Notes: generated by a model from the letters alone, not told the origin. A stretch of 59,695 nt of DNA, filler included, from Sphacelaria rigidula (GCA_964200075.2; 5 parts of 5 records of this genome joined end to end with filler, not necessarily neighbours in it); one strand, 5' to 3'. Numbered from the whole stretch's first letter, positions 4,695 to 57,252 are shown. Made by a program: numbers and translations.

Positions 4695-6602
4695 CCATCT
4701 AGGCCGTAGGCTTTGCACCAGGGACCGCCCATGGCGATACAGCTCTCCTCGCATGTCATACCTCGCCCGGTAACCTCCAGGAGTCCGAGCTCAGTCGGAG
4801 GAATCTGCAGAAAAAATATCCACGGGAGTTATAGAGGGAGCAACGTTTGTATGCCTATGTTTGGTGCCAAAGCTGATGGACGCTTGGACGCACCGGTAAC
4901 ATCAATACAGTTACGTAAGATATTAAAAACACTCGCAAGGCGTGTGGATGGTGTCTGGAACCTGCTGCAACAGAGCTGCCGGGTAGCCTTTACGCTTGGT
5001 CACAAGGCCAGCTCAATTACACCCCAATCAACACTATCGGATGGAAAATGACGATATTTGCATGTTGCACACCTGCTACGCAAACCTGTTTCTCACGCAC
5101 CGTCTCAGATGGTACTGTGCCCTGACTCAACTGAAAGATGTCGCTCCATTCATACAAAAGTCCAGATATGTGCATACATATGATCTCCCCCCCAAAAAAA
5201 CAAATGATCCGTAGTTTTAGGGAATCAACCTATATCTGCCACGGTTCATGCTCGGAGCTTTGGTATTATCGCGAATCGGGTCAACAGGCCCGCACCGCGC
5301 CGACTCTCGTCAAACGTTTGTACTACATGCGAAGCTCTTCACACTTTTTATGTACAAGCTACAACGAGCTAATCGTCTATTCGCAAGTGATGAGGAGTTC
5401 ATTCACGTTTCTGTTCGACCCTCTGATCGCCAGCGTTCAACCGGCACCATCTTCACTGAAAAAACACAACGCCACGGACCCAAATAACCAACCCACCCTG
5501 ACGGCCAAGGGGTGAACACACATGTGCACGCGCATAGACGCCGGCATACAGGAACAAAAACAAAATCTCATCTCCGCCACCTCGCTCGCCAATCCATGCC
5601 CGTTGAAGGCTTGGCGTCGGTTGGCAACGACGCTGAAAAACAATCAACTCACTGCGTACGCTAGGCAATCGGGTTACCGTTACGTTTCTCGCCTGCGTAT
5701 TTAAGCGGTAACCATAATGGTGAGTTGGATCATATTGTGCGGGGTGAGAGAACCTCGACTCCGCGCGAAGGGGATGATCGTAGTACGTAGTGTCGAAACG
5801 GTGAGACATTCATTCGGCAGAGTGCAGCCCGTGGCTGTCTCTAGAAGTGGCGATACCAGACAATGAAGCAACCACTTCGAGGCTGTCATCAATACGCAAA
5901 ATAATTAGTACGCTTTGGGCCGGGCAATCTCAGCGGGATGCAGTTCCCCCCTGCTGCAACTCGCCAAACACATCACGGGGCTTCGCGCCCGGTGATTGCG
6001 AGCTTGGTCCGGCAAAAACCTCGCGTATTTTGTGCCGGCTTTGTAAGGATGCAAGATCAACGGTCATGTGACCACGCCATGCAAGATCATGAGTACACCC
6101 CGCCTCGCCCATCCATTGACCCACCTGATCGTAGCACGACTGCGTATCCCCAGGGGTACACTCCACAAACGGCATGCCATCATCCAGTAAAGCCTGCGTC
6201 GGCGCAGCCGTAAACTCTGGGTAGATCCCTCGTCCTCTCCTCCCCAGCATTGTGGGCGATGCCGTGAACTCCGCACCCCCGCGGTCCCTCATGCCCACAG
6301 TAGGAGCAGCAGTATCGAAGAACCCGCCTCTGGAGGATGACGTAGGGGCCGCCGACTCGAACATTCCTTCCTCAGACACGGCCGTGGGCATCATGGTCAT
6401 CGCCGGGGCTAAGGTTTTGAAGCCCTTGCCGTCATTGGGGCCGCGGGGGTCGGACAACACGGTGGGGGACGGCGTTACCGCAGCGCTGGGCGGGACGGTG
6501 GGCGGGGCCTGCGTGGGGTGGGGGGGGCACTTGACGCAAGAGCTGCAGTTGTCTAGGCCGTCGCCGCACACAGACATGCAGTCCCGTGTGCACATGCGGC
6601 AT
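4695..6602 (-). CDS. Partial multi-exon gene: Cys-rich protein with Pro/Thr-rich (TAAPT-type) linker, probably secreted or cell-surface
   Basis: Exon 6602-6125 (cag| ... CRMCTRDCMSVCGDGLDNCSSCVKC, then PTQAPPT/TAAPT repeats, CTPGDTQSCYDQ|gtgggt) joins in phase 0 to exon 4804-4695 (ttttttctgcag|IPPTELGLLEVTGRGMTCEESCIAMGGPWCKAYGLDG|gtaagt). Flanking exons could not be identified reliably. Confidence 0.7.
5608..6110 (+). mobile_element. About 500-bp family-A retroposon copy ending GATCATGAGTACACCCC
   Basis: Continuous similarity to the reverse complement of 7020-7535. The 3' ~110 nt recur at 11778-11822, 23781-23821, 24763-24868, 35925-35970, 36322-36450, 36452-36565, 38230-38330 and 53568-53665. 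Confidence 0.8.
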
Positions 6603-6699
6603 CTGATTTACGGATGCGTATGAAGGGGCAAAAGGGAGGGAGGGAGGGTAGGGGGGGGGGGGGTCGGGGGGTGTTTCTATTGTTCATTGCTATGCCGCT

Positions 6700-6964
6700 G
6701 CGACCCGGTGGTGTAATGGTCCAACTGTCGCCATTGGGGTGGAGAGAACGAGGGTTCGATTGCCGATGCGTCGGGTTTTTTTTCTTCGCAGTGTATGATT
6801 TCCACCGTGGAAAGCGTGAGAACGTGAGTAAGTAGAGCGGGAGTGCTGACCCAATCCGCGAGACCAAAATGTAAGGCACGTACCGGGGGAGAAATGGGTT
6901 GATCCCTTGAGACCACTGACTCATCCCGAGGAAGGGGGAGGGTTCAAAGTGCGAGGAAAAAAAA
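6700..6964 (+). mobile_element. tRNA-derived SINE
   Basis: A box TGGTGTAATGG, B box GGTTCGATTGC, T run, conserved body GCGGGAGTGCTGACCCAATCC and A-rich tail. Second copy at 14341-14617. Confidence 0.75.
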
Positions 6965-7019
6965 TAGTTTGACCATTGAACACGCATCTCTTTCGAGAAG
7001 GAGGAGGGCGCGGGGGCGG

Positions 7020-7535
7020 GGGGAGGGGGGGGAAGGGTACTCATGGTCATGCATGCCATCATCATGAGACCATTGACCGCCCATCCCTACAAAGCCGGGA
7101 CGCAGCACGCCGGGGTTTCGCCGGACCAGGCTCGCACTCAATCACCAAGTGCGAAGCGCCGTGGTGTGTTCGGCGAGTCGCATAGGGTGTGAGCTGCATC
7201 ATACTTAGCTGGTTCGGCTCGAAGCCTCCTGACTATCTTGCAATTGGATGACATCCTACGATGACTTGCTTCATTTTCTGGTATCGCCACTTCCAGAGAC
7301 ATCCACGGCTTATACACTGCCTCATGGGTGTGTCACCATTTAAACACTAAGTAGTACGATCATCCCCATTTTGCGGAGTTGAGATTCTCTCACACCGGAC
7401 GGCATGATCTAGCTCGACCACCATCATGGTTACCGAAAAAAAACGCATGCGCGCAAAAACAATCGTTAAGCTGGTTGCCTAGCTGACGCAGTGAGTGGCG
7501 TGTTTGACGGCGTCATCGCCAACCGACGCAAACCC
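7020..7535 (-). mobile_element. About 500-bp family-A retroposon copy (inverted partner of 5608-6110)
   Basis: Reverse-complement match over the whole length. Terminates in a G-rich run at ~7000-7037. Confidence 0.8.
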
Positions 7536-7827
7536 CATCGGGGGTCCGTACCTACAGAGCCATGATGGAGCACGCCGGCTTCTCGCCGGACCAGGTTGTA
7601 CGCGGCGGGGGGGTTGATGTAATTGATTGATATGAAATGTTGACATTTCTTGATTTGCGTTTTATTTCGATTTTTGTTTCTTATATTGTTGTGTCCTGAT
7701 TTTTTTTCTCAATTCGGTCGAGTGGTTGAGTTTTGATTAACTCGATTTCTATTTCATTTTATTTTGACTTGATTTTTTGTCTGAATGCTGGATCCAATAA
7801 GATTATTCAGTGACAAAGTTGAGTGAC

Positions 7828-7880
7828 ATGATCCGATCCGATTCGATTCGATTCGATTCGATTTGATATGATATGATCCG
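7828..7880. repeat. (GATTC/GATCC/GATAT)n pentamer array
   Basis: Direct reading. Confidence 0.85.
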
Positions 7881-9636
7881 CTTCCATTTATGTCGAATTG
7901 AGTGAATGGTTGATTGCCTCCGATTGACAGAAGGGGAGGTGGAAGGGGGGGTGAGCGTACACGTGTACGTGTGTGTTTTCTGGTTTTCAACAACACATGG
8001 AGCAACTACGTGCTGAACAGCACCGAACTTACCCGGTAAGAATCACGTCAGCAACAAACTCCGGTCAAATTCGGGGATGGGCAAGGAATAGAGCGTGAGA
8101 GATCGGGCCGGTCTAATGATCCAGTACTATTTCCTCTCTAAATATAAGAAAGAAGATACTCATAGTTCGGGTGAGGGTGGGATATAAGGGTTGAACCCTG
8201 GGCCCAAAACAGGGGTTTGTACTGGCTGGTCAGTTCTGTGCCCCTAGACAATTATTTCTGTAAGCTTTGATCAATTGACCGATTGATTGATTGTTGGGTC
8301 GTCTCACAAGATCCGCTCTGCTGTGAAATCAACCGGTGGGTGTAAAAAACAAAAATAAATCGATGATGAAGGGTAGGAACTAAGAAGCTTACAGAAGAAC
8401 TCAAGATCGGAAGCAAAAAGCGGCCGACAAACCTTCAGGGCATGCTTTCGGTACATCGACGGGCTCTGCAGCAGCCGCAACATCTGGGGCGTGCAAAATC
8501 GCAAATCGCGCTTGCCGAGGGCACGTATTCTTCGACCAGCGTTGCTTTAAACTATCCACCTAGCGGCCGAAAGCTTTGGGCGCTCCGGGAAAGTGCGAGG
8601 AGGAAGTAGTTGACCAGGTAGCCACCGGTGTGTGGAGAGGAGGAGCGTGGGATTGGATACCAGCAAAAGGGGTTCTTCTGGTGAGGGTAAATATTGCAGG
8701 ATTTGTAGCGAGTCAGGTCGCCATTTCCGGGAGGACGATGTAACACCCCTATTTAGCGCCGCGAGGAGATAAGAAGCCGCCGGAGATAGTAGCCTTCACC
8801 CGAGGAAGTAGGGTTGGAGCCTCGACAAAACATTATTGGAGTAGCCGAACGTCTCCTCCGGCTCTTTTGCTGTACGCTTGGGCCTGATCGTTTTTGTTTG
8901 TTTGTTCGTTTGTTTGTTTGCTTGTTTGTTTTTCACATTCGAGTCTTTGTTCAGCTTTGGCGTGTATGTCTTAGCCCACTATTATGTCGTCGTTCTGTTC
9001 GACTTTTTCTGTTCCTCTTTTTTTTTTCTTCGGCGAGTGTTTTCAGTCTTGGTTTGTCTTGGGTACGCCTATCATATGAAGAATGACCACGGCTGAATCC
9101 CTTGAGGGTCAATTAAAGTACGACAACCATTCAAATGAGATCAAGTTCTATCGCGGCTGCTTTTCGAACAGATGTCTTCAGTGTTTTCTGTTCCGAACTT
9201 TTCGCCCCATGCTCGGGTTGGTTGGTTTTCGGTGTTGGATTAGGTCCATCGTTCTCTTTTCTCGTTGATCCTTTGCTATCGAATTCTATATTTGTCATTC
9301 GACCTGGTGGCTTTGTTGGCCGATCGCGAGATATATTTACCCAGATATCCATCATTTATACATCATGTATATGCGAATTGAAGGGGGACAACTGCTTTTA
9401 TTTCCTGAAAGGGTATTTTTTTTTTCAGTTGGTTAAGCGTTGACGTACTGTACACGAGTCCTTTTCGTCTCTTTGCGGCGGTTATTCGTAGAACTACATG
9501 TTGACGTAATTTCCATCAGCCTGTTCTGAGTCTGCCATTGTCAAAACTAAATGTGTGGTGGTAGCAATGATAACGACGATATAATAAGGATAATAACAAC
9601 CATATAATAAGGATAATAACAACCATATAATAAGGA

Positions 9637-9741: not shown

Positions 9742-9742
<1 letters not shown>

Positions 9743-10620: not shown

Positions 10621-11861
10621 GGTCTTCACCAACTCCTCCCTCACTAGACTATCATTTGGATAATGACCCTGGTTCGAACTTAATCCTTATCTTGTGGCGG
10701 CGGGGGGGGGGGGGGGGGGAAAAATTTATGTGTTCGTAATTTTACCCATCGGGCCCGAAAATGCCGCCCCACCCCCCCCCCCCCCCCNNNNNNNNNNCTA
10801 TTGCGTTTGTTGTTTGGGTGTGGTGTGGGTGCGTGTTTTGGTCGTTGTGGTGGGGGGGGGGGGGGGGGGGGGGAGGTGAAATATTTATGTGTTCGTAATC
10901 TTACCCATCGAGCCCGAAAATGTCGCACCACACCCCCCCCGCGCCCTCGCTGAGGCATGAGGATGTGCAGTACATATCGAACCCCTGGACAATGACAAGT
11001 AAATCAGACGGAGGGATGTGGGCGTAGGATGGCAAGGGAAGAAGGGTCAAGGAGTCACGACATACATGTTGGTGTACTTGATATTCTTAATTCTTGATGT
11101 GCTTGATGTTGTTAGTGTGCCACATGATGTCAGCGCTGTTCACAGATTCCCTAGCAATTCTGTTGCCGTGGCTGCGGCCGACGGCCGAATGATCTCAGTT
11201 TATATGTATATATATACTCTTGGATACCATGTTAGTGCAGGATATGAAAACTCGCCCGAGAAACGAGAAACTTTCTAGCTGGTCTAGTCTGTTCTGCTCT
11301 GTGGTTATTCACCTATTTCCACGGTCCCTGCACCGACCTGTTGGGAGGTTTTTGCTCACGGCCGGTACTAGATCCTCACCTCAACGTGTTTTTATTTTCC
11401 TTTCTCTTCTTGTTCTCTACAGTTTTTTGCCGTCGGGATTTTTCCCATTTTCTGTCTTTCTCTCGAGTTTCCTTCAGCGAGTGTTCCAAATCCACTTATC
11501 CCGAGCAAGTCTTTTCGGTGGCTCACGTCACGTGAAATTCCGAAGAACGCAATGCTATGCGGCACGCATCGCGGTAGGTATCTATCGTATGCTTAGGGGT
11601 CCACCAAGCACTGTTCCGATCGTAATTGTGGCGGCTTTCCGACTTCCTGGCTGACTTCCTTAGTGACTCCCTTAGTGACTCCCTTACTGACAAAAACAAC
11701 AAAGACGCCTTCTTTCCCCCCAAAGGTGAGACGACAGAGGCGGGGCGGCGGCCGAGGGGGGGGGGGTGGGTAGGGGGTGGTCATGATCATGCATGCCATA
11801 GTCGTAGGACCATTGACCTCGGGGGTGGGGGGGGAATCTGCATATGCGCTGCTTATGCTTC

Positions 11862-11961
11862 NNNNNNNNNNNNNNNNNNNNNNNNNNNNNNNNNNNNNNN
11901 NNNNNTTAATTAATTAANNNNNNNNNNNNNNNNNNNNNNNNNNNNNNNNNNNNNNNNNNNN
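11862..11961. other. Artificial scaffold linker (N44-TTAATTAATTAA-N44)
   Basis: 100-nt N block with a central all-frame stop linker. Identical linkers at 23822-23921, 35781-35880 and 47739-47838. Confidence 0.97.
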
Positions 11962-14003: not shown

Positions 14004-14340
14004 GTACGTACAGTACTGCAAGCGAGAGCACGTAGACTGCACGCAGAGATGGGGGGGGGGGGGGGGGGAAACCAAGGAAAAGCCTGTCCGGAAAAAGGGC
14101 CCGGGGTGGGGGGTTGTCGGTGTGCTCTGCCTANNNNNNNNNNTCGTCTTGCGCGCCTGGCGCTGGCTAGGGTCGGCGCTGGCGTGGGGGGGGGGGGGGT
14201 CGCGGTTGCAATCAAGGTAAAGCCTGTACCGGAAAAGGGCCCAGGGTGCGGTGCTGTCAGTGTGCTCTGCCTATACATCACCGCTGCGGGGTAGAGTGAG
14301 GATGATGAGTATTTTGCGAAAGAGGCCAAATACACCCTGC

Positions 14341-14617
14341 GGCGCCCCGGTGGTATGATGGTGCGACTGGTGCCATAAGGGTTGAGAGGACGTGGGTTCG
14401 ATTCCCGATATGTTGGGTTTTTTCATCGAAGTAGCTGAGGGGGTGACTAAACAAAAAGAGGTTGATTGAGTTTGTTTGACGGGACTTGACGCGGTGCGGG
14501 AGTGCTGACCCAATCCACGAGACGAAAATCCAAGCATACACCGGGGAGAGATGGTTTCATCCCTTGAGAACACGGGTTCGTTCCGAAGACGGGAAGGGGT
14601 GCAAAGTGTGACAAAAG
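14341..14617 (+). mobile_element. tRNA-derived SINE (same family as 6700-6964)
   Basis: CCCGGTGGTATGATGG ... GGGTTCGATTCCC head and the shared GGGAGTGCTGACCCAATCC...CCCTTGAGA body. Confidence 0.75.
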
Positions 14618-17413: not shown

Positions 17414-19743
17414 CTACAACACCGCGCCCCCACACCGTGATCCCGAAACGTATTCATCAAATCCTGGCCAAAGCCACACGGGCGTGGGCGGTGCTCTTCC
17501 CTCTCCGGGTACCACAGCATCTAAGTCGTGCGCTGCATCCATAACATCCAACAACCCAATCGATCCCTCGTCCCCTGTCCTCTCCCATCTCCGCCCCACA
17601 GCAGCAGTCACTCCGATAGCCTTGTTTGACAAATTCGCAGCGCTCAGCTTCTGATCAAGACTCGACACAGCGGGGTCGTCCATGTCGAACGGCCGAAGAA
17701 ATGGACCCCTCGAAACCTCAAACGCCTCCTGCACCAACGCCGCCGCCGCCGCCCCCGAAGCATTTTCCATCCTGGTAGCGTCGCTACCGCGGCAGCCAGC
17801 TGCATCATCTTTCATTCGTGATCCACAGCCGAGATTAAATGCCGTGTCTTCGTGCCTCCAAAGCTCTTGCGCCCGGCTGACACTCGCGGTGCCCCATTCT
17901 ACCGGAAAATCTAAGGGCTCTCCGGTGGCTAGCTCAAATCGAACTGCGTCGGGTGTGATGCCGTCGGAAACGGCGGAGGCAGTGGAAGCCACGCCGGTCG
18001 GGGCTGCAGAGAAGGCTGAAGTGTGAAAGGACCCTCCCTTCATCTCTCGAAGCTCTCTCTTGGTCTTTTTCTCAGGATTTTTCTTGAGGTGCCGCTTAGT
18101 AAGAGATACGGGTACCACCGGGGGTGGTAAGATTCCGAACTAGAACGTGCAATTCAGGAAAACGAGGGGATAGCGAGCGCAAGGGTTGCGGCGGGTGCAA
18201 GTGCAGGTGGTGGATTCGCTGCTGGATTGTCGCATATTAACTCACCCATCGAAAAGCCAGCCGTGTTCACAGAGCGAGGTCCTTAGGACACATGTACGGA
18301 AACACTGGCTGATGGCAACCCGAGCAAAAAAAGCAAGAATGAAAAAAGTAAAAGAATCAAGTGTTGAAACAAACAGAAAAGGCTGACGGACGCCAGGCAA
18401 ATGAAATAGTACCGGTCCTGGGCAAAACCCGAACAACCATCTATCAGCGCTTCAAGTGGGAAGGCTATGCAATTGGTAAACTCGTGGAACCAGGATGCGA
18501 CTCCGCTACCTGGGACCACAAGACACTAGGCATGGACTCTCGCTCGCCGTCCCCACTCGCCAACCCCATAAGACGGAGGCATAACAATCCATACAGTACC
18601 GCGAGATTAGATCATGAAACAACAGGAGAGAAGAGCAAAAGGAAGGAAAGTGATCCAGAAACCCAGAACCAGAATATGGCATGCACAGACAGTGAGTGGA
18701 CATAGCTCCAACTGCGGAGCAGAGCTGAGGACGGAAGCTGGCAACAACAGTATCATGGGATGAGACGAGGGTATAACCTGCCGTGTAAACTCCCGTTTTG
18801 CCCTCACCCCTAGTTAGGGACAAATGGGACGACGCTCGGTCATTTCCGACTTGAATTGCTCACAGGCTGTTTGTGGACTAGGCAAAACTGATCATGCTGT
18901 CATTCTTTGGCACGGGGGAAGGTAAAAACAACTTCAGGATGATGGCTCTTAATTCCAAAACACCTCCCCTACACAGCCCGATCCATGCATCGGCGAGTGA
19001 AAGGGTAAACATATAAACGAAGCCACGTCAGACGAAGTCTTGCGAGCCGGGCGGAGGCAGTACTGTATGCTTGTGTGACACAGCCTGTATTTGCACTGGC
19101 TAATCAAACATATTTTGTTGACTGCTCGGTTGAGAATCCGGCTGTGGCCAATACAGAAGCACTGGCTGGAGAGAGCCTCAGTAAGACAACGGAAAAGGAC
19201 AAAAACAAAGTAGCAGAGGAAAACAGTGACAAAATAATGATCAAATAAACTGACGACAGCGGTCGGGTTAACAATGATGGCCAGGCATATCCCCGACAGG
19301 GCTTTTCACGTGTGGCCAAACAGCGAGGAAAATGGTGGGAGCACGGTGATAAATCATTCGGGAAATAGTATTAACAAGAACCGTACGGCGTACATTAACC
19401 GTCTGATGGGGAAGTTATCTGCATGTAATGACGTTTTGGCATTAAAAGCAATAATATTGAATTGATATGTAGAGAGCGTTAAAACTGTACTGCCGGGCCT
19501 AGTGGTTCATTCGCAATCAGTCAAATGAGGCGAAGTCGAACGTAATGCACCGACCCCAGACTCCGGCCTCTCTTTCTCCCAGAATCCTTGGCAGCTATGC
19601 CTGCTGTCACACACCTGACCAAGGAGCCAGGCTACTCTGTCGCTGGGCTTAGCTCCGACTCCGATCCAGTATCGGACTCTGTCCACCTTGAAAGTTACTT
19701 CCTTAATGCCGGCCTTGTTTGCCATGGGGTTATATGTGCCAAC
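17414..19743 (-). CDS. rps16: Nuclear-encoded mitochondrial ribosomal protein S16 (3' part) with long C-terminal extension
   Basis: Exon 19743-19615 (cag|VGTYNPMANKAGIKEVTFKVDRVRYWIGVGAKPSDRVAWLLGQ|gtgtgt) is the conserved S16 core (GTYNP ... RVRYWIGVGAxPSDRVAxLL). It joins in phase 0 to exon 18139-17414 (ctag|FGILPPPVVP...GGAVL*). The N-terminal exon was not found in this scaffold. Confidence 0.88.
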
Positions 19744-20274
19744 CTGTCCGGGGAGCGAACATGAAAATGACAGAAGGGAAGGGAAAAGAAGCATATCGTG
19801 GCTGATTTATGCAAAATGACGAAAGAGCCATATCATGTCAACGATTCTACAAGTCCGCTGCGAATATTGCGGCCTCGGTCTGAAGCGTCCCCACCCAGTT
19901 GTGACCAAGCGGTGAATTCACGACAGGCGCTTGTGGCAATTTGTTCTTCCTTAATCCAGGTATCCATTCACTTGAAAAAAAATATGCGTGATCTAGATGG
20001 ACTACCCGCACCGCGATCAAAGGGTCAAGAAGCAGATAACTCGCCCCCGCAGGGAAGGAGTCAGTTTAACCCTGTGACGCCAAAAACGGGCAAGCTGTTG
20101 AACCAATACCACTTTCGCCTCGACAATGAATGCCAAGAACCAGATGACCCACCCTCTTTCAATCAAGCTGCGACAAAAAAAAAAAAAGCTTTTTGGTGAA
20201 TACGAGTAGTAATACCCAAGCAATACCCAATATTTGGGTAGATTTTGGCGACCGGACCATCGCAATACATACAA

Positions 20275-21870
20275 AATTACAAGGTTGTGTTCTGTAGGGT
20301 ACGGTTTTCTGTATACCTGGGGTATATTGCCGGGTATTTACCGTACCCGACAGTGCTGTGACTTCTGTAAGACTTTCATACCCTTACCCGATGGTTCTGT
20401 AATATCTGAAAGCCTCCCGTACCGTTACCGGGGGGAACGTGTACGCTTTTGAAGATACCTGATTGCGGGTACGGTTTTCTGTGCAGCCTGCATACCCTAA
20501 CCGACAGTTTCTGAGAGTTCTGCAAGCCTCCCATATCCTCACCCGACAGTTCTGTGAGTTCTGTAAAGAATGTTCACCTGTACCCGGAGCGCTGTACCCG
20601 TTTTCTGTAAGCCTCCCATACAATATCCAACAAGTTCTGTACTTTCCGTAAGACTTTCATTTCACGTACCCGACTGTTCTGTGAGCTCTGTAAGACTTCC
20701 ATACCCCTACCCGTGGTTAGGGTATACCGTTATAAATATACCCGATTGCAGGTATGAGAACAGGTATAATATGCCTTGGGGAGGTACGGATATAGGTTCA
20801 ATTCAAACACAACCTCATGACCTGAAAATATACCTCCCACCTATCAACCCACCCAACTTCATCATTCAACACTGCACACCAACAACAATGATTCCATGTT
20901 GAAAAGTTCTTCGGTTTGGGATCTGACGGGATACAAGGTACCGCTGAGTGGAAGCACGAAATGTGAGCAGCCATGCAGACCGTCAAGATGGACAAACCCA
21001 GACTCGAGTGATGGCCCGAGCGGGGGCGGTTCATCTGTGCTACCAGAGGATCAAGTAGCAAGAAGCACGTCATCGACGTTGATGATGGTTGTGTCGTGGT
21101 CATCAAACCCCATGCCGTTATCCACATGTACAGCACGGAGTATGAGCTGCCACCGAAAGTCGTCAAGGCCGTCGGTGATTTTGTCGTGGGCCGAAGGGCT
21201 TCCAGAGAACGGGCAGGCGCGAATGCTACTTCATGTCCTCTCTGGGAGTGTATGTGAAGCCGGCAGATGTTGACGATCCCGTGCGCATGTACTACTGCGA
21301 TTGTTCGTGTAGTCTTTCTTCATCAACCCCGTGAAGCCGTTCAGAGTTTCACGAGCTGTCATGTGTATTTCGCCATTGTTATAGTGACGTAGGTCCCACC
21401 GCAGGGGTGATGATAACAACAAGGTCGTGTTTGGTAGGGTACGGTTTTCTGCGAACCCGGGGTATTTTGTCGGGTGTTTACCGTACCCGACAGTGCGGTG
21501 ACTTCTGTAAGACCTCCATACCCTTACCCGATGGTTCTGTAATCTCTGTAAGACCTTCATACCCGTGCCCGATAGTTATGTGGGTTCTGTAAGCCTCCCG
21601 TACCATTACCGGGGGGCACGGGTATACTCTTGATGAGATACCCGGTTGTAGGTGCGGTTTTCGGTGCAACCTCCCTACCCTACCCGAAAGTTTTTGTGAG
21701 TTCTGTAAGCCTCCCATACCCTTACCCGACAGGTCTGTGAGCTCTGCACAGAAACTTTAGCTTGACCCGAGGGGCGGGTATACCCTGAAAGAGTTACCCG
21801 ATTGCCGGTGCCCGTTTTCCGTAAGCCTTCCATACCGTACCCGACAAGTTATGTAATTTCTGTAAGAGTT
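20275..21870 (+). repeat. Two direct copies (20275-20775; 21415-21870 continuing 22134-22210) of an internally repetitive element (TACCCG..GTTCTGT.AG units)
   Basis: Both copies start ACAAGGT.GTGTT..GTAGGGTACGGTTTTCTG and are colinear for about 450 bp. Confidence 0.8.
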
Positions 21871-21871
21871 T

Positions 21872-23499: not shown

Positions 23500-23545
<46 letters not shown>

Positions 23546-23821
23546 CCGTCTTTGAAGGTTAAAACCCCGCTAAGGAGAGGTCGGAAGTGTCAATCACAAT
23601 CTACTGCTATCGTAGCTGATGCTAGGCAAAACATTAGTGGACATCATGGCCGACACCACGCGGTAGCTGAGGTCGTATCTTGACCCAATATTTGCAAAAA
23701 TAAGTTCCGAACCGAGTCATTTCGTTTTTTTGTTGCGGGCAGATTTCGGAGTGATGCTACGTCAGGTGGGGGGAGGGGGGGGGGTGTACTCATGATCATG
23801 CATGCCACAGTCATAAGACCA

Positions 23822-43800: not shown

Positions 43801-44330
43801 TTTCGAAGCACATTGCCATGAGGCGCTCGTTGATATACTCAGTGGTATAGCTGGCGTTAATGCAAATCGACTCCCTGATGGCTAGTCCCATAACGAAGTG
43901 CCAACCTATTCGCCCCAACAGCAAAAGACTCTGAACCCTGCTTCGGCACAGTTTCTTCGTCCCACCCTCCGTGCCTTTTGCAGTTCTATCGCCGAGATGT
44001 TTAGTCTCGAAGCCTCACAAAAAACGCTGCAGTTTTGTCCCCATCCGTTGATTCCTTTCGCAATGATAGTTCGGACGTTGCAGCGGGAGTTGCCGAGACT
44101 GTTCGAGATCGCCCTGCACGATTTTTAACTTCCCTACGTGGTCTAACCCGGCAGAACGGTTGCCAAGATCGACGGCTATACGAAGCAACGCCGAATACCC
44201 GGGGAAGAGGAACATGGTGACGCGGCGATCCATCGTCGAACCACGTTCAGTCCCAGGGTTTGTCAACCCTAGGCCTGAGGGAGGGTAGTACGAGGATGAG
44301 CCCAGCTATTCGACTGACGGGCTCGGAGGG
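40840..44330 (-). mobile_element. Decayed near full-length non-LTR retrotransposon (APE endonuclease + reverse transcriptase, RTE-like)
   Basis: Frameshifted fragments in the expected order: endonuclease (MDDNARTG, SDHN at ~43380-43670), [20 protein letters not shown] (42465-42650), FVGLQKGYDSVDRELLW...GLRQGCVLCPLLLN (42056-42364), LHADDA (~41930), RLPKQVAFG (~41280). Many stops and frameshifts. Confidence 0.93.
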
Positions 44331-45709
44331 CTAGTTAATGTGATCTACAGGTATTCCAACTAGAGGCGAGGGAGTGGTGTCCGTTGTAACGGTTACAGAC
44401 ACGCCTCCGTGCGCGCCGTGGTTTCACTACCCGGCACGACCCTTGGTTTTTACTCTCTTTATGAGCACAAAAACGAGCTAAGAGCTTATGTGAATCTAGT
44501 GATGAGGCTATGATAACCTCCACCACGAAAGAAAAACTGAATTGCCTCTGGAGTTGTGATCAAGATCCTTGCCGTTCCATGTGTACGGCGTTGGACGTAT
44601 TCCCTCTTGCTATGCTTTTGCTGGTTGGTTGCTGAACACGGTGAGACAATACAGTAGTACGGACTCCCGAACCATGTCGTCATGATAGTATAATGATTGA
44701 TTTCAGTGCACAAACAGCATGGTGTATTCGTGACAGGTTCCGGCATAGTCAACATGGTATATATTAGTCATCACGTATTTGTATGCGCATGATTTGACTC
44801 AACTGGATGCTTGTTCGAGACCACGAGACATATCGCCTTCCTGTACGCCGGTAGCGATGCCTAATGCTGAGAACGTCCCACTCTACCGTCTGTTTGTAAC
44901 AGTTGTAAGTGGCTACCGTAACCAGCAGGCCTCCTCCTAGCGCGGCCCGTCTTTCTCTTCTTCTTCGTCTTTTTTTTTATTTGAGAGCGCTGTAGACTTT
45001 CCGGCTATGTTTGTTAGCCCAGCGCTTGTCTTTTCATCACGGGCAGGTGGACCTTTCCTGCTCTGTCCGACTTTACTCCTCCCTCGCTTCTGGTCTGCCT
45101 AACTACGCGTTGGGCATTCCCTCCATTCCTGTCTAGGCTGTCCCTACTGCGGTTTCCGCTGCTTCACAGCCCCGGGTTCCAGGATGTGGCTTCGGCATGT
45201 AACTTCATGATGCTGCCAAATTCGTTCCGACACTAAGACCACACCAATCTCGCGCTCGCGGTACCTCTTAACTTTAAACGCAGGCCCCCCGGTAATACGA
45301 GGCTCAAGTTCGTGTATCCGCCGTCGTTGGATGGTCTTCGCGTGGTCTGAGATCACTGGCGGACTCCTGCCCACCCCAGTATGGGCAGGTGGGGGGGGGG
45401 GGGGTAGGTCCGGGTTTTTTTTTTTCTTTATTGCTTTCACCTTTGGGATGGTGTCCCCTCGGAGACAGGGACACCTTCAACATTTGGGTGCTCATGACGT
45501 TTCTTCCATACGTTACACAAAACCTTTCACGTATCTTATCCCCTTCCTGTTTCGCCGTCTGTGGCCACCATCTATCTTCTGGTATAGCCATCGTTTTCTC
45601 GCTACTGTCTCATGTATCAAACGATTTTTTCCACCTTCGCTTACTCCCCACATTTCCCCTCTTTAACACGTGCTGTTCCTTCTTGAATAGTTCACGACCT
45701 GCCACTATA

Positions 45710-46299
45710 TGAGCTGGGCCAGCCAAGAGTAGGTGTGAATCTCGCTCGGGCGACGCACGGCGCGATACTAGGAGTTGGACGCTGAAGTTTTGACAGCAGC
45801 TCTTTATGATCAAAATGCAGAAGATCACCTGACCAGCAAAGAAAAAAAGAAGTTATGGGCATTTGAAATTTCAGCAAAATAAGATAATGTCTTTAGCCCA
45901 GGAAAAAAAGGAGAATCTGTAGCTGCTCACGTGAAGTATCAGTTCCTTGGGTGCAGAGGGTCTGCCTGAAATTTCAGCTCAAGAGTCATTGAATTGGGCC
46001 GTGCGTTCAACATTTTTCCGTGACGCTGCTGCCCCCCTATAAATCAAGTGATGGGAGACTCCAATTGTGGAGGCCATGAGTTCGAATCCCGACAGATTAT
46101 CTTTTTTTTCCGTCCGTCGTTACGGTCATACATTATGCAGTACATTTTTTTTCGAGTATTTTCTCCATTCAGCGGCGGTGCCGTGTGTTACCAGGTTGAT
46201 CTACACTTCACGGTGAAATGCTTACATCGGGTTCATTCGGGAAACTGTTAGAGCTGTGGTGTGAGAAAGTTTTAGCCGCTTTTAAGCTGGCCCAGCTCG
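45710..46299. mobile_element. CGAGCTGGGCCAGC-TIR element inserted into the family-B LINE
   Basis: TIRs at both ends. The host reading ESRTH|IVAG is interrupted precisely at this point. Confidence 0.8.
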
Positions 46300-46842
46300 T
46301 GTGAGTTCTACTCTCCATTGCTTTGCGACAGGGCAGTTATGTGCATCTGCTTATTCCTTCTTCCATCCGACCACTGATATACCTCTTTCTGCTCTCCTTT
46401 TTTTTTTTTTGTCAGGTCCAGGTCGCCCACCCGAAATCGCACGTTCAAAATTTTCGCAGAGTCCAGTGGGTCATGCAGATATGTTTTCATCCCTATCCCG
46501 TCTCTTAACCCCCTGCTCATCTTCAGGTGCTCTTGCTCGTCTACTTTTCGTCTTGGTGATTATTTTCCCCCTATCTGCATCAGGTCGCTTATTTTTGTCT
46601 TGCACCTCCCGTATTCCCCTATGTGCATTATGTCGTCTGAGTTTCTTCTACCACGCCTTGCACAATTTCTCGGCTACGCTATCCCGCTTCATTCCAGCCT
46701 GCCCTTTTGTCACTTTCTTCCATATAACCCTGTCACCTATGGCTGGCAACTTCGTTCTTGGCATGCTTTTCATTACGTTATATTATCATTTCAATTTTCT
46801 CAGGTCTCTACTTGTTTCACAAGTAGGACAGATTAGTTCCCT

Positions 46843-47420
46843 GTAGCTCGAGCTAGCTCATTTTTTGCGTAGCTCCCCAGTGAGCTATGAGAGCAATATG
46901 AGCTACGCATGTTTTCCCTGGGTGAGCTACGAGAGCTGTATGAGCTACGAAAGTTTGCCCTACGCGAGCTACCAACCCGTAGCTCATCAGCTCATATTCG
47001 TCCTGGGTGAGCTATGGGAGCTGTATCACGTTTGCCATGGGTGAGCTACCAACCCGTAGCTCATCAGCTCATATTCGTCGTGGGTGAGCTATGAGAGCTG
47101 CATGAGCTACGCATGCTTGCCCTGGATGAGCTATGAGAGATGCATGAGCTACACATGTTTGCCCTGGGTGAGCTACCGGACGTAGTTCATCCGCATATGT
47201 TTGCCCTGGATGAGCTACCAACCCGTAGCTCATTCGCTCGTAAATGTCCTGGGTGAGCTATGAGAGCTGCATAAGCTGCGCAAGTTTGCCCTGGGTGAGC
47301 TATCAACTCGTAGCTCATCAGCTCATATTCGTCCTGGGTGAGCCATCGGACGTAGCTCACACGTACATGTTTGACTACAAGTAGGCTACGGCCCGCAGAT
47401 GAGCTAGCTCATGAGCTGTC
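46843..47420. repeat. Minisatellite of ~42-bp units (TGAGCTA...CCTGGG) bounded by short inverted ends
   Basis: About 12 units of two interleaved types. Ends AGCTCGAGCTAGCTCAT / ATGAGCTAGCTCATGAGCT. Confidence 0.85.
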
Positions 47421-47738
47421 CAACGTGCGATTGTTTCAAGGGGGTACAGTCCCAACTCTGCTCCCAATGATGAATTACTCGCCGTTTTCGAGCATCCAAG
47501 TATTTTATCAGCTGCTAACAGCCGATACTGATTTCTGGGGTTGAAACAAAAAATGAGATTGAAGTCCCATTTCTCCATTGCGGGGAAGATACGAAAGAGT
47601 AACACAGAGCGAAAGTATCTTCCTCCCCACAACTCAACAGGAGGGCTTAACCGTCAGACCGCGAGAGTAGTTCACCCGCTGAATCAGCATCAATATTCAC
47701 GTGGAAAACGTACGCGTGGTCCAGATCGACTACCAACA

Positions 47739-47838
47739 NNNNNNNNNNNNNNNNNNNNNNNNNNNNNNNNNNNNNNNNNNNNTTAATTAATTAANNNNNN
47801 NNNNNNNNNNNNNNNNNNNNNNNNNNNNNNNNNNNNNN
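47739..47838. other. Artificial scaffold linker
   Basis: Same N44-TTAATTAATTAA-N44 structure. Confidence 0.97.
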
Positions 47839-50355: not shown

Positions 50356-53300
50356 TTCGCCCACTACGTGATCTTCTTCATCGCCATCTTCACGGTGCTG
50401 CAGCTCGTTATGCTGGGCGCGTCGACGTACCCCATCAAGTACCGCTGGGATTCTGCGGCCTACAGGAGCGAGGAAGAGGTACGCTGCGACACGCTTCACT
50501 TCAGTACGTGCATGGCACAGCAAATAGTACAGTATGATAGCAGGGAGAAAAACTTAGAAAAAAGGTGGATGTGGAACCTTGACCTCACTGGTGTTGCTAA
50601 TGTTGAACGGTGTGGAACCGCGAAGTGGGGCGTAGTTTTCTTCCTTGATACTTGAGCAAGGGTGGGGTGTGACCTGGGTGGCAGACTGTTGAGTCGACCT
50701 GCACCGGGTACAAAATAGTTGTGTTGTGCCTCTCCAGGGGTCGACGGTGGCTCTTGCTCTGTCGAATCGTTTCTACCGTCGAGATCCTATTGTCCAGCGT
50801 CCCGTAACGTCGGCTGCACAGATGCGAGAAATTCAGGCCTCTCGGGATAGTCCGCGGTTAGACCTGCTCCTCTAACGGTGTCGTGTCAGCTTCATACGTG
50901 GAAAAAAGTAATCGCACCGCACATACACTGTAGTGGCCTCCACATGGGGATATATCTACGTCAACTTACGGGCGATGTGTGTATACTCTGGAACAATTCA
51001 GATATAATCGTCGCGCAGGCGAGGGACGCAGTGTGTACGAAACAGTACGGTGCAGCAGGAAAAGGTCTTACATTACATCGTTTTTGGTACTACTGTACGA
51101 ACTGTTGACCAGCAGACCTTGCCGGACAAGGGCCCGACCTTTATCTCTCTCAGGATCGTTCGCAGTACCGTTGCAACTCTGCTGTGACTCTGCTGTGACG
51201 CTGCTGTGATAGCGCTTTGATACCACCACCGCGCTCCGGTGGTCTCCTTAGTGCAGCTGAAACCAATTACGTCGGGAGCGGTTGCGGGTTGCGGGTTGCG
51301 GGTTGCGGGTTGCGGGTTGCGGGTTGCGGGAAGATAACCTTGTGTTTTTCGTCTGAAAAGAAGTGCAGTGTCAGGTATCCTCCGTTCAAAACGTGGGGAT
51401 GTGAGTACTATTATTTATTTATTTTCCTGTGAAAAAAATCCTTCGGTTTGATTCCTCGACACCAATGACTCGGCCCTAGGAAGGGGAGAGGCTGGAAGTG
51501 TGACTTGGGAGTTGTTTGTTAGTACTCGACCTTTTTTCATTGTAGATATGAATCGTTTGCCCAGCGTCCTCATCTCTGTGTTGCGTATTTAGTCCAGTAC
51601 TAGCGCACATGCACAATGTATCGGGAACGGCCATACCGCGTCGGTAGCGCGACATCCCGTCCGCTCTGTGAAGTTAAGTAGACTTGGGCTACGCTAGCAC
51701 TACGGTGGGGGAACACGTGGGAAGCCTTGGTGCTGTTTCCATTCATGTTTCGTTCGAAGCTGATGTCCCGTTTGTGTTTCAAGCACTCAGCCCCTTACGT
51801 GGCTACCACCCTGCCCCGGCGCTAGTAACCGTGTGTGGGCATATGTAGACAGTATATTATTTTATATTTATTTGCTTGGGACTGAAACAATCTCATGGGT
51901 GCATCACTCACCGACCGAGGTAGAACGGCGAAAGAGTAGCGTCAATGGATGGACCTATCGAGAACGCGAAGGCGTCCGCACATGTGACGCAACTGCTATA
52001 CAATGTGTCTATACTACACACGGTTAACCCTTTGGCCGCGAGGGTAGGTAATCTCTTGAGTCGGCATCAATTTCACTTGAAATATGTATGCATGATCCAG
52101 ATCGACTACCCTCGCGGTCTGAGGGTTAATTGAGAGCACGCTAGTAGTCAGTCAAGTACGTTTTTCGGGTTTGAGTCATTCGATTCTAGTACAGGAAGAG
52201 TAGTAGTGATCGCCAACGACCTCGTCAGAGGCCTTCTCAGCGGCAGGTGAATCTACACAGAAAAACACATGAGCCAACATAAATGCACATATTTTTTGCT
52301 CAAGAACAAGGATGTTGGTTGACAGAGTCTGAACCCCTTGACAGACTGTCAAGCACCAATTGCCTGTCTTGACAGCCTTGACAGGGTAACGCCTGACCAT
52401 ATAGCTGAAACCCGAAACGCCATTTTTTTTGGTTCTAGAGGTCATGCTCTGCAATAGAAATAGCTGGTAAGGGTTTTTATGCTACGGAATTATGCCGCTT
52501 TAACGGAGGGTTATGCTAGCTCAGCCCTGATTATTCTGGCATTATCCTCGTATGCTAATTCGGGCGAAAAAGACGAATTATGCTAGAAAATATGCCGGCA
52601 CCAAGAACTCAGGTCTAGTTCTGTCAAAGGAAAAATAAGGGTTCCACAGAGATGGATAGGCGTTATTTACCCCGGGGACACGGGATGTTTTGTCTTGGCG
52701 ACGCCAAACGCCTTGACAGACAGACTCGACAGCTTGATAGCTTGACGTCAACCGATATCCTTGCTCAAGGATGCAACACGCTTACCAACGAAGGATACGG
52801 CTGCTGTGAAAAGCACGCAAGAGGAGCTGACACAGGAATGCCTTCGTCTAGTTCACCCCCTACCCCGAGCAGCCGGTGGTGATAGCTTACGAAGTAGGTG
52901 GCGTAACGACCATCCATACTTATGTAACGGTGGCCAGTAACTGACTATACTTGGCGCGCGCGAGAACTTCGTTTCTGCTGTACCCTGTGTTTTCAAAGAA
53001 GCCAAACAAGCGCGGATCCGTAGGTGACCATACAACATGCGTGTCGATGAAAAGCGTACTCTGCCTCTTTTCCCACCCAGGCCATTGAGGCCTATTTTGG
53101 CCAGCAGGTGACGGTAGCGATAGCCCCTGTGGCAACAGACCACACGGTACGGTGCTCGTCGTGAAGTATAATATTGTATCGAGTACGTGATAGTCGCAAC
53201 ACATGTCGACGAGCCAGATGTCTGACTACTTTGCCGTCTGTTTTCTGTCATTCGATGTATGATGCATATATTGGTATGTATATATACATTGTACATGACA

Positions 53301-56300
53301 GTGGGTAAGTGTTCATGTTGTCCTCCCCTTCCTCCCAGGTACTGAAAGGCTACACCGAGGCGATAGCAGCAAACCGATGGCACGCTCGAGTACCGTTGCT
53401 TGGGCGGGTGTCGCTCGACTTATTCCATCTGGGAGAGGAGTGGCGCTGGGTGGACTGCGTACAGTTCCACCTGGCGCGTTCGATTTTCATCAGGCAGTTC
53501 GGGTAAATATGTCGAGCGCGGATGAGGGAGGAGTTGCTGGCGTGGTGGGAGGGGGGGGTGGGGGGTGGGGGTATACTCGTAGTATTGCATGTCATAGTCA
53601 TTAGACCGTTGACCTCGTATCCCTACAGGCCGGGGCGGAGTACGCTGGGTTTTCGCCGGACCAGGGGGAGCGGGGGGGGCGGGATGCGATTACGCTTATG
53701 TGTGATTTCGATTTTGATTTGGTTATTATTCGATTGATGGTTACACATATTTATTGGTTCACTTCCAATCCAGCCGTGGTCGCAAGGCAGACAGAAGAAT
53801 ATAGGTGCTTTGGGAGGGGGAGGGGCGTACTCATTTGTTGCTCGCTTCGATCATTTGACCCGTTGACCGCGCATCCCTTTCGAAAGAACAGTGCACCGTT
53901 CCTACTCCTAATAGAGACACCTCTCAATATTTTGGCGCTCATTACGTTTTCTTCCACACATTACACAAGATTGTTTTACAGATCACTTCCCCTTCTTGCC
54001 TCGCCGTCTGTGACAACGCCATCTATCTCCTAGTAAAGCAATCGTCTTCTCGCTACCATCTAAGCTAGTAATCGATTTCTTGCCACCTTCGTCTACTTCC
54101 CACATTTCCCCCTCTTGCGACGCCCCATTACTCGTTGTATAGTTAACGTGCTCCCACTGTATAGGTATACTCTACACAGGGGGGACGGGGGGGGGGGACT
54201 TTTATGAAATGTGTTGGCACTCCGATAGTTCCTGTGATGGAGATNNNNNNNNNNAGCTCACCACTCATTAGGTCGAAATGTACTCGGTCTGAATTGGCAC
54301 GTATTGTAACGTCGTTTCGTTGTCGGGGGGGGGGGGACTTTTATGAAATGTGTTGGCACTCCGATAGTTCCTGTGATGGAGATGTAGCTCAACCCCGAGC
54401 ATAATTATACGTATACGTATGTTTATGTATAGTACATCGAGGAAGTCGTGCTTGTGCTTGCGGTGTGATGAACACAGGTTGAGCAAAGAAAAGCCGTAAT
54501 AGAGAATTCCAGATGACGCTTTTTTGTCATTTCAGTGTGCAAATATCTCAAGATCAGAGCGTAACGAAAATTTATGTCCCCCTCCCTCAAGTGTGGGATC
54601 CCCTCAACTTTTTTTCGATGGTTTGGTTTGTGTTTTATCTGCTGTCTGATCCTGAGATATTTGCCCTCTGAGATAACAAAAACGCGTTTTTAGCGTTCTC
54701 CTAAACTCTCTGATGAATAAATATACGTATAATTGTACAGTGTGAAGCTCAGGAGAGCTCATCGCGCTCCCCTTTTTCCAAGATCGCCCCTCTTCCCCCA
54801 ATTTTTCTGTGTGTTCCCGCCGTCCTGCTGCATCCGTGGTAAAGTATCTGGGGAGAAAAAAACGCATTTCTTTGTTTTTTTGTTTTCTGCCTTTTTCATC
54901 TACCTTGGACCACCAAAATAAGAACAAGAAAAAAAACGAACGTTCACTGGGGTTGTACGAGCTAGGCCAGCCTGAAAATGGATTTAAGCTCTCAAAGCAA
55001 TGAATATCTCATCGACACGGATGAGTTGGGCCATGGTCCGCGTATCGTATCAAGCGGAAGGTGCCCATCTGCCAAAAAAATCTGGGTCAATATTTTCTCG
55101 TTGATTTAACCCCATGTCTAGTGATTCCTATACCGCACGGAGATGGCGTCCACACTAAAATAAGTATGAAACCCAGAACGATACATTCAGTGGATGAAGA
55201 TTTTTGGTGTGGACCTTCCCTGGAGCACGGGGAGACGATAAATACCCTCACCTTCACCTGATTCGCGATCTATCTGGAGATATGGCGCACATAATGTTCC
55301 GTACTAAAATCGATATATTACGAGCAGAGGTACTAGGTGCCCTAAATCTGGATATCACATCTCAGTTTCTGAGAGTTGTGCTATGAAATTTAGTACGGAG
55401 AACCGCTAGTGCATAAATAAATGAAGTATATATAAGACACAGTCGGAGAGTGAGTGTGACTTATCCTACCCGGACGATGGGTGTGTGTAGGTTGTAGCTT
55501 CTCACTCGGTGAAAGGGCACGGGGTGTGCGGAGCCGCGACGTGGACTTGAACAGGACGGACGTTGCAAATCGGTTTGGGTTGAGGTACAGAATGACGGAG
55601 TAGGGGATGTGCCCCCGAGGAAGCATCCCGACAGGGGAGAATGACGCTCCCACACTGGGGATTGGATGATGACAGTCCTAGGGGTGACAGACCCGGGAAG
55701 ACGGTCCGGGTTGACTAGCCCGGGGTTATTAGTAAGCGGGTCGGGTCATACAGAGGTCATAACAACATATAAGCTTTTAGCTTTTTTTTCTTTTTTCCGT
55801 GTTTTAGGGGAGTTCTGAGGAGTATTGAACATTGCTCTTTTAGGCCTTATCTCAATTTTTTGCTCAATTTTTAGAAATATGCTTTGAAACTTGGCATGGA
55901 AAACTACAGAAGCACGCTGAAAAAAAAAACATGGGCCTTCATATATACGTATATATATTGTGAGAGGTTCGGGTGTCCTCGTGGTAAAATAGTTACCATA
56001 CTTGAACGCCCTGAACCAGCGAAAAAATGAATCTGAACCAACCTGACCCATGTTCCTCGGTTCACCATGACCCAGCGAGGTTCCGCACAAAGTTGCAATA
56101 CACAAACACCAAACGTGGGCCGATAAACGACCTGCAAAATATTGTTCCGAATTTCCGCCGCCCCGGGTTTTTAAAGGCGAATTCGCAGTTTCTGTACTTA
56201 GAGTTGGACCCAGAAATTTAGTATAAACAATCAACAGGGTATAAAAAATATATACATGCTGGGTCCCAAAGTTTCTTTTTTATTAGTTAAGGGCAATAAG

Positions 56301-57252
56301 CAGGGTTCAGATTCTGGTAAAATGCCGTTTAATCACAAAAAAAACAATATTCAGGACCCGGCATAGTATACTGTAGTTTTTATGCCCTGTTGATTTTCCA
56401 TACCAATTTTCAGTGTCCAACTCCAAGTAAAAAATTGTGAATTCGCCTGCAAACTACAAATCCGTTTCCAGGCTGGCCCATCCCGTAGCGAAGAATAGTA
56501 GCGGATGAGACGTGCAATATCTTCGCGGCCCCATCAGGAATGCTTGTCGACCGAATTTTTCTTTCTTTCACTCTGTTTGTTTTCTTGTCTTCCTTTCTTC
56601 ATTTTTTTTGTCTCTTCTTATGCCGTTTTCACTTCCTTCCATTTTTGTATTCGTTTGTTCGTTTGTTTGTTTGTTACAGGCGACGCGCCGACTTTGACTT
56701 CGCGCGATACGCGTGCTTGGTGACAGACCGCCTGATCCTGAGCCTAGCCAACCCGCCCTTGAGAAGTTGGATGATGCTCATCGCTTTGCACTGGTTGTGC
56801 TATTTCGTCACCAATACGTTCGAGAGTCTCGAAGGGCGAGTTGTTGTTGTTGTTGTTATTGTTGTTGTTGTTGCTGCTGCTGCTGCTGCTACGGACAGTT
56901 GGTTTTCCATCAAGAAACAGGGGAGAATTGATTGGTTGATCAATTGACTGATAGATTGATTTTCGCACATCCACTCATCGTTTAAGAATTGAGGATGAGT
57001 AAATCATAATTGCAAAGTGCCCGCCTACGCCCCCCCCCCCCCCGGCTTTGGTTAAACGACAAAGGCAAGCAATAAATGAGTACGCTCCCCCCCACCCACC
57101 CTAGTGTCACTCTGTTACTGCAGTCAGCGTGGCGATTCACGTCCGGGAGCACAGAAGTAAATCGCGCGCGACACCCTGATGTACCCTGATGGATTGCTGG
57201 TTCCACCGATGCAAAAAGAACATTGGCCCTTGTATTTATGCATTTATGTATG

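Follow-up and report, generated by a model that had tools for sequence, protein, structure and literature searches.

The closest described counterpart of the repeats treated here comes from Ectocarpus, where a non-autonomous element of ~600 bp that shares its 3' end with RTE-X long interspersed nuclear elements (LINEs) is the most abundant transposable element family (PMC12477816). According to main-text passages of that paper, the pair is named RTEX-N1_Ec32 with RTEX-1_Ec32 / RTEX-2_Ec32, showing that the RTE-X clade has such a partner, and the 5' region of RTEX-N1_Ec32 is of obscure origin, with no recognisable head reported by the authors (PMC12477816). Excerpts of a second paper distinguish stringent from relaxed 3'-end recognition and describe tails other than poly(A), namely TAA in the I element and TGTAA in UnaL2; the repeat tail of the UnaL2 type is thought to permit slippage or registration at initiation (PMC3747384). 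Here we analyse a 59,695-nt stretch of DNA from Sphacelaria rigidula (GCA_964200075.2; the window), which holds copies of a LINE (family B) and of its putative passenger (family A). Copies of the two families share a 3' module of ~60 nt that runs into a terminal C run, and truncated copies lie in flanks rich in C on the element sense strand. An earlier note on this DNA had proposed a LINE and partner of this kind. We consider it likely that an autonomous LINE and its passenger are inserted by target-primed reverse transcription (TPRT) that is primed on G tracts pairing with the C terminus of the RNA.

The window is not one locus. Artificial linkers (N44-TTAATTAATTAA-N44 at 11862-11961, 23822-23921, 35781-35880 and 47739-47838) split it into five concatenated pieces of ~11.86 kb each. 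The element copies therefore derive from five separate places, and distances and adjacency across linkers carry no meaning.

Two repeat families with a common 3' end

Copies were recovered by self-BLAST with two long family-A copies and by a profile search that excluded the tail. The profile of the shared 3' module stops at GAGTAC; as the same copies went into it, it can reveal copies that were overlooked but offers no independent test. All 14 stretches listed in the earlier note (10 of family A, three of family B and the LINE body) proved to be real, and two pieces were found beyond them, A3 (7536-7601(-)) and B5 (6963-6995(-)). A common 3' terminus is present in 13 copies, with lengths from 36 to ~500 nt in family A and from 41 to >2200 nt in family B, and the fixed 3' end with variable 5' truncation claimed in the note is borne out across them. 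With up to two mismatches, the motif CATGAGTACRCCCC occurs seven times in the window versus 0.70 expected, a count reached in none of 100 shuffles.

The nature of family B was established through an 83-aa frame at 46308-46559(-), which matches one long protein, P0121 (1360 aa). The Pfam domains of P0121 are Exo_endo_phos (residues 170-392, 3.4e-12) and RVT_1 (residues 740-989, 9.8e-31), and its C-terminal extension contains the invariant residues C1243, C1245, H1254 and C1259, a CCHC motif. In a tblastn search against the window, residues 1025-1344 aligned to 47620-45445(-), with frame shifts, stops and an inserted minisatellite, and residues 1270-1360 aligned to 54114-53834(-). The window copies of family B cover just the part downstream of the reverse transcriptase (RT), corresponding to P0121 residues 1025-1360, and the APE endonuclease and RT are known from the relative P0121. 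Two proposals of the earlier note agree with these alignments: the frames of copies B1 and B4 run towards the C run, in the orientation it had assigned, and the LINE with a Cys/His knuckle that it had suspected has its APE, RT and CCHC motif in full-length P0121, to whose C-terminus both copies align. The predicted protein marks family B as an autonomous non-LTR retrotransposon whose single open reading frame (ORF) encodes APE endonuclease, reverse transcriptase and a C-terminal CCHC motif. Over 834 aa, P0121 aligns colinearly with the RTE-type protein P0009 (23% identity, E = 2e-44), so that family B fits the RTE superfamily, in which it probably belongs to the RTE-X clade.

The longest copy in the window is B4 (45405-47620(-), or 45391-47620 with its tail), a degenerate 3' third of the LINE that includes the CCHC motif, ends in a C14 tail (45391-45404) and is clipped by the piece end at 47738. 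Between its codons for P0121 residues 1090 and 1091 lies a minisatellite at 46880-47373 with units of about 42 and 85 nt, rich in 'GTGAGCTA...'. B1 (53827-54162(-), or 53812-54177 with tail and flank) holds the last ~90 LINE codons, with the stop TGA in AAATGAGTACG, then a C-rich tail; C11-GT-C6 precedes it. The others are short: B2 (24712-24752(-)) is a 41-nt 3' end directly after the tail of the family-A copy A6, B3 (57044-57085(+), or 57030-57102 with flanks) is a 42-nt 3' end with C14 before it and a C-rich tail after it, and B5 is a 33-nt piece that lacks the terminal ~30 nt and lies directly after the tail of A2.

Outside the window, three full-length or nearly full-length relatives were available. 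Two of them, L001 and L002, are among the four loci of a metagenome scan, and L005 was the sole locus from a pattern scan of genome contigs. The other two metagenome loci end differently: L003 stops at residue 996 and L004 is distant (37% identity) with a different end, leaving just L001 and L002 to reach the 3' end. B5 shows 92-95% identity to L001, L002 and L005, and matches the profile at positions 3-26 with E = 0.001. Viral contigs gave no match to the DNA patterns of the A and B termini or to the protein query P0009. Relatives of the LINE are annotated from Ectocarpus sp. with 70% and 47% identity (P0123 and P0124, respectively). Some Ectocarpus gene models join the C-terminal part of the LINE to unrelated sequence, namely a Gypsy-like pol in P0123 and a long low-complexity protein in P0125; these fusions are probably gene-model artefacts from LINE fragments.

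The proteins of this LINE family end ...APSRKG(C/R)V(V/A)NGQMT(K/T)ASNK. The frame of L001 reads ...RKGCVVNGQMTKASNK, followed by the stop TGA, then GTACG and C8, and this stop codon, 5 nt before the C run, is the TGA within what the earlier note had given as 'AAATGAGTAC'. It follows that the ~60 nt common to A and B correspond to the last ~19 LINE codons. In an alignment of 15 ends, the two families are colinear from AGGGATGCG to GAGTAC, with their consensus sequences agreeing at 46 of 59 positions by manual count. The similarity of family A to the LINE is confined to this module: the sole match of A2 to L005 is 64 nt long (77% identity, E = 5e-7), and A1 gave just chance-level 16-nt matches (E = 0.41). 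The note's view of A as a non-coding partner that shares the 3' end of B thus stands, with the overlap limited to the last ~60 nt. As the LINE has practically no 3' untranslated region (UTR), the RNA element recognised by the RT must sit in these last ~19 codons. A module that codes for protein in the LINE but not in the partner can mislead gene callers.

Family A is represented by two full-length copies, 74% identical over 500 nt, and by 3' fragments of 36-130 nt. A1 (5606-6101(+)), found by both self-BLAST and profile, is without the 5' duplicated segment and ends ...CATGAGTACACCCC; A2 (7037-7535(-), or 6996-7535 with its tail) has a 37-nt C-rich tail from 7036 to about 7000. Directly upstream of A2 lies A3, a partial copy of the A 3' region preceded by C7. 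Two fragments are clipped by piece ends, A5 (23786-23821(-), or 23765-23821 with its tail C10-T-C6) at its piece end and A7 (35881-35953(+), with a C16 tail to 35972) at its piece start; the C7 within A7 (35893-35899) arose by mutation of internal sequence and does not mark a junction. The 5'-truncated copies are A4 (11778-11821(-), or 11737-11821 with its C-rich tail), which is 44 nt long and preceded by C8-A-C5; A6 (24769-24868(-)); A8 (36320-36437(+)), preceded by C7-ATT-C6; A9 (36453-36549(+)), head-to-tail inside the A8 tail; A10 (38232-38317(+), with tail to 38339), with similar C-rich sequence on both sides; and A11 (53572-53663(-), or 53539-53663 with its 32-nt C-rich tail), preceded by a 20-nt C-rich stretch.

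By its sequence, family A is a non-autonomous passenger of family B of about 500 bp, or ~585 bp with the A3 segment. No ORF of at least 90 aa with a Pfam match was found in its copies. A short interspersed element (SINE) in the strict sense combines a 3' end common to a partner LINE with a 5' head derived from polymerase III (pol III) transcripts; family A has the former, and the latter was not found. An Rfam search of 5500-7700 gave no match to a pol III head (tRNA, 5S, 7SL or snRNA) at E <= 1; its two hits at this permissive threshold were at chance level. ARAGORN called no tRNA in family A, and the window-wide Rfam search at gathering thresholds returned just a 5S gene elsewhere.

To gauge abundance, contigs of four sequencing runs were placed on 4000-9500 (5.5 kb) at 80% likeness, run X1 alone contributing 98,239 contigs. 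The summed contig depth in run X1, which is not a copy number, was 1e6-7e6 over A2 and 2e5-3e5 over A1, compared to about 68 in single-copy parts. Family A is clearly very abundant. Two among the 12 contig joints listed connect 6100/6101 to 5606/5607 with 3-5 nt between; these are head-to-tail copies, and they define both A1 termini. The A3-A2 composite recurs in other genomic copies, with joints of 7544-7548 to 7085-7089 among those listed, so that A3 and A2 together may be one variant of ~585 bp; this longer form, which starts with a duplicated segment of the 3' region, may be the usual full-length one. Empty sites, joints skipping A1 or A2 and differences in tail length were absent among the contig joints listed, which is uninformative since contigs break at repeats.

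C runs at the ends of the copies

The profile search of the window gave 14 matches at E <= 0.001, 13 of which extend to the profile's 3' end. Each of these is followed by at least seven Cs in the next 12 nt (range 7-11), compared to a background of 2.9% on either strand. The fourteenth, at 6968-6991 in B5, is 3'-truncated and tail-less. B4 is missed by the profile because of a deletion in its shared module; it nonetheless ends in C14. The earlier claim that every copy ends in a C run and not in poly(A) is thus matched by every copy that reaches the terminus. Tail length ranges from 6 to 37 nt, and Cs make up a fraction of 0.70-0.94 of each tail.

The external relatives have cleaner ends. All three reach TGAGTACG, which is followed in L001 by C8 and GCACCTCC..., in L002 by C10 and TTATCATCG..., and in L005 by C13 and GTTGGGGG..., with unrelated flanks after the C run. 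When the 110 nt that follow the terminus were compared in all pairings of 14 window copies and the three external loci, the matches were C runs and the A6/B2 same-locus pair, and nothing more. Because a C run and then unrelated sequence follows in 3/3 external copies, the C run is terminal and not internal, which answers a test that the note had set for its own proposal.

A similar picture emerges at the 5' ends. At least 10 Cs are found in the 20 nt upstream of 10 of the 11 5'-truncated copies (background 3.6%), the remaining one, B2, having nine. The enrichment is always of C on the element sense strand, never of G. C runs had been noted at 5' junctions before, and they fit priming on G/C tracts. 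With C-rich 5' flanks in 10/11 truncated copies and C-rich 3' flanks at 13/13 ends, truncated inserts are bordered by one simple repeat at either side, which is not the case for the two full-length A copies.

Target-site duplications (TSDs) with a non-homopolymer part were seen in A1, A6 and B2 alone. The candidate in A1 is 13 nt long, CTCGCCAATCCAT upstream and CTCGCCCATCCAT downstream (12/13 matches); that in B2 is 15 nt long, CCCCCAAACTCCGAA and CCTCCAGACTCTGAA (12/15 matches); and in A6, CCCCCAAATCACGA and CCCCCAAACTCCGA agree at 12 of 14 positions by eye. The middle copy of one motif belongs to both A6 and B2, and the site looks like one C run hit by two insertions. The duplication starts with Cs in A6 and B2, and in A1 a short C-rich sequence precedes the 13-nt core in both copies. 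C at the start of the TSD is the position expected if Gs of the primer strand paired with the terminal Cs of the RNA. A first guess at a TSD for L002 (CCTTATCA) was ruled out, as the homology to L005 continues upstream of the guessed site. Four of the 16 pieces lie exactly at the end of another copy (A9 at the A8 tail, B2 at the A6 tail, B5 at the A2 tail, and A2 at A3).

The earlier note had further suggested that the elements may generate the many G/C homopolymers of this genome. The window contains 30 G/C runs of at least 10 nt, compared to 19 A/T runs of that length, as well as six N10 gaps, mostly adjoining G or C runs. Six of the 30 belong to elements, as the tails of A4, A5, A7 and B4 and the 5' flanks of B1 and B3, and nine of the 39 G/C runs of at least 8 nt flank a family A or B copy. 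The sequence 5' of the remaining long C runs was inspected for extremely truncated copies, and no GAGTAC-like ends were found; one doubtful candidate, 38027-38069, was unconvincing. With only 6/30 long runs at element ends, families A and B explain a minority of the tracts in the window, and the suggestion has little or no support. Each insertion into a C tract would still add one tract.

Proposed priming on G tracts and rival explanations

The features described above can be accommodated in a TPRT scheme. Both RNAs would end ...GAGUAC(A/G) followed by Cs, and the endonuclease would nick the opposite strand inside or beside a G tract. The exposed 3' oligo(G) would then pair with the terminal Cs of the RNA and prime cDNA synthesis; it is the nick position and this pairing and priming step that we infer. 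With the second strand cut about 13-20 nt downstream, a copy of the C tract would come to lie on each side of the insert, and the majority of cDNAs would be 5'-truncated. The tail of an existing copy could itself serve as a target, giving head-to-tail and nested copies. Nested copies are expected under this scheme because the tails themselves would be targets. Family A has taken over exactly the ~60-nt module of the LINE, which would amount to 'stringent' 3'-end recognition. We regard priming on G tracts by C-ended RNAs of the LINE and its passenger as the probable explanation.

Several observations weigh against it. The tails in the window are impure, as their C fractions indicate, and the 5' flanks of the full-length A1 and A2 have just 6-7 Cs of 20. 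When each copy's own 5' and 3' flanks were paired, the mean score was 8.68 versus 8.08 for cross-copy pairs (permutation p = 0.21, 11 copies). Because C-rich sequence of low complexity flanks every copy, TSDs cannot be demonstrated for the copies as a group. In the shared module, RNAalifold predicts a small GGUC/GACY hairpin with 0 compensatory changes (-4.8 and -11.1 kcal/mol). The window copies are old (74-88% mutual identity), with truncation points uncertain by a few nt, and the sequence of the three external LINEs stops short of their 5' termini, at tandem 5' repeats on the contig ends, so that no TSD can be read there. The RTE-X placement of family B is indirect and draws on the colinearity with P0009 and a statement of the Ectocarpus paper. 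Lastly, the Cs after the terminus in A1, A6 and A10 may be read wholly as target sequence, so the window copies by themselves do not prove that the RNA encodes an oligo(C) tail, although the clean C8-C13 of the external copies favour such a tail.

This last point leads to a scheme in which the RNA has no C tail and ends at GAGTAC(A/G), the endonuclease is site-specific for C/G tracts in the manner of microsatellite-specific LINEs, and all Cs are target DNA, the tail length being that of the tract hit. It accords with the Cs of A1, A6 and A10 being wholly assignable to the candidate TSD, with the upstream C tracts of truncated copies (14-20 nt) falling in the same range as readable TSDs (13-15 nt), and with the many such tracts on offer, 30 runs of at least 10 in 59.7 kb. 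However, C8, C10 and C13 in the external copies give way immediately to non-C, which resembles a regulated tail length rather than random tract positions. Moreover, a copy placed before a C tract would be transcribed with 3' Cs anyway, so the scheme, which we think unlikely, differs from priming by C-ended RNA just in degree. The upstream C runs could alternatively be the work of the RT, either as non-templated Gs added to truncated cDNAs or through template jumps onto C-tailed RNA, and would then lie between TSD and element. While the runs do abut the truncation point in A4, A10, A11, B1 and B3, and chimeric structures exist in the form of the A3-A2 and head-to-tail joints, the length of the runs (14-20 nt) speaks against such an origin. 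So do A6 and B2, in which the C run occupies the distal 5' side of a TSD that continues AAAYYCMCGA, as expected for target DNA, and we give this explanation little credence.

There may also be no mechanistic link at all, with copies accumulating or surviving passively in C-rich low-complexity DNA, or with C runs expanding secondarily. G/C homopolymers are indeed common in the window, and 24 of the 30 long runs lie away from A and B copies. Yet the association is specific for strand and position, with C and never G on the sense strand right after GAGTAC(A/G) at 13/13 ends and in 3/3 external copies. A passive process would give G as often as C; hence the strand specificity counts against it and makes it highly improbable.

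Other features and comparison with known systems

A second LINE lies at 41003-45208(-), starting about 180 nt after the C14 tail of B4. It is a nearly full-length, degenerate RTE-type element with APE and RT in a single ORF, corresponding to P0009 residues 1-1197 with frame shifts and stops, and the best named protein matches of its RT fragment 42059-42460(-) are from Ectocarpus sp. and Ascophyllum nodosum. It resembles family B in its single ORF for APE and RT, but is without the CCHC extension and has a different 3' end. Its ORF ends near 40860 and is followed by ...GGAAACCCCCACCACCCC near 40810, so that this single window copy may also end in Cs. Another very high-copy repeat is found at 6690-6950(+), 14339-14611 and 51445-51491, with a summed depth of 4e5-1.7e6 in run X1. 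On the + strand, the copy at 6690-6950 starts with a tRNA-like stretch followed by T8, and lacks 43 nt present at 6831-6837 in most genomic copies; ARAGORN calls no tRNA in it, and it may be a tRNA-derived SINE.

The 5S rRNA gene is located at 51623-51741(+), where Rfam RF00001 matches over its full length (62.8 bits). A tandem repeat of ~41 nt, with a consensus like CATACCCTTACCCGACAGTTCTGTGAGTTCTGTAAG..., forms arrays at 20279-22196 in two blocks 1140 nt apart, and a frame at 19510-19806(-) with the C-terminal half of ribosomal protein S16 (PF00886, 3e-10) is probably one exon of a host gene. There are also near-identical pairs of short segments, 54187-54244 and 54325-54383, 10696-10787 and 10855-10946, 14051-14068 and 14186-14199, and 23379-23395 and 23501-23544. 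Every segment of these pairs runs out into a long G/C run, and the two members are spaced by 110-160 nt, next to N10 gaps. We set them aside as candidates for further C-tailed families, as they may be assembly duplications at homopolymers; they may alternatively be real tandem copies of further C-tailed repeats.

The window pair is similar to RTEX-N1 with RTEX-1/2 of Ectocarpus, as described in the passages of that paper, in being a brown-alga LINE with a short partner that shares its 3' end and reaches very high copy number (PMC12477816), and the 70%-identical relative of the window LINE, P0123, is annotated from Ectocarpus. The two pairs very probably correspond, matched by published description and not by sequence. 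In the main-text passages retrieved, there is no C-run terminus or C-tract preference, which Fig. 1C (terminal motifs) or Supplementary Material 3 (annotation notes) may state; 'homopolymer' and 'poly' as a whole word each occur 0 times in the main text, and one of its two instances of 'tail' is 'tail-to-tail' (PMC12477816). Less is thus new than the earlier note had supposed: a LINE with an abundant partner was already published in Ectocarpus, and the C-run ending is absent from the passages retrieved. A literature search on C-tailed LINEs, homopolymer C/G targets or brown-alga homopolymers found nothing relevant. What is possibly new is the combination of a C-run terminus, strand-specific embedding in C tracts and a coding recognition module.

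With eel UnaL2/UnaSINE1, as presented in excerpts of the second paper, the pair has in common a partner that borrows the LINE 3' end and a short repeat tail other than poly(A) (PMC3747384). Unlike in that system as described there, the repeat unit in the window is a single C, the module is coding and not part of a 3' UTR, and a stem-loop is unsupported. In L1 with Alu/B1, a T-rich nick pairs with poly(A) (PMC3747384). The geometry matches that proposed here, with a TSD that begins with the homopolymer of the tail and with 5'-truncated copies. The window system differs from L1 in that the homopolymer is C/G rather than A/T and that a specific ~60-nt module is needed, hence it is not 'relaxed'. 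The microsatellite-specific LINEs of Kojima and Fujiwara (2004) reportedly belong to other clades and target di- to tetranucleotide repeats; like them, the window elements have a simple repeat on both sides of the insert and accumulate in tandem, but the presumed target of the window elements is a homopolymer of C/G. To our knowledge, almost every LINE worked out so far relies on a tail rich in A/T or on short microsatellites.

Where a retroposon lands depends on the LINE tail and on how it pairs with the nicked target. Long G/C tracts are able to fold into G-quadruplexes and i-motifs, and in the window assembly gaps adjoin them; a very abundant element that lands in and duplicates such tracts would have consequences for the stability of brown-algal genomes and the quality of their assemblies. 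It is conceivable, and we put it forward tentatively, that a brown-algal LINE lineage swapped A/T for C/G in the logic of TPRT, with an oligo(C) RNA end primed by oligo(G), a recognition module in the last 19 codons, and a resulting motor that spreads G/C homopolymers. A homopolymer C/G system would offer a natural contrast to L1 with respect to the parts played by the endonuclease and by primer-template pairing in target choice.

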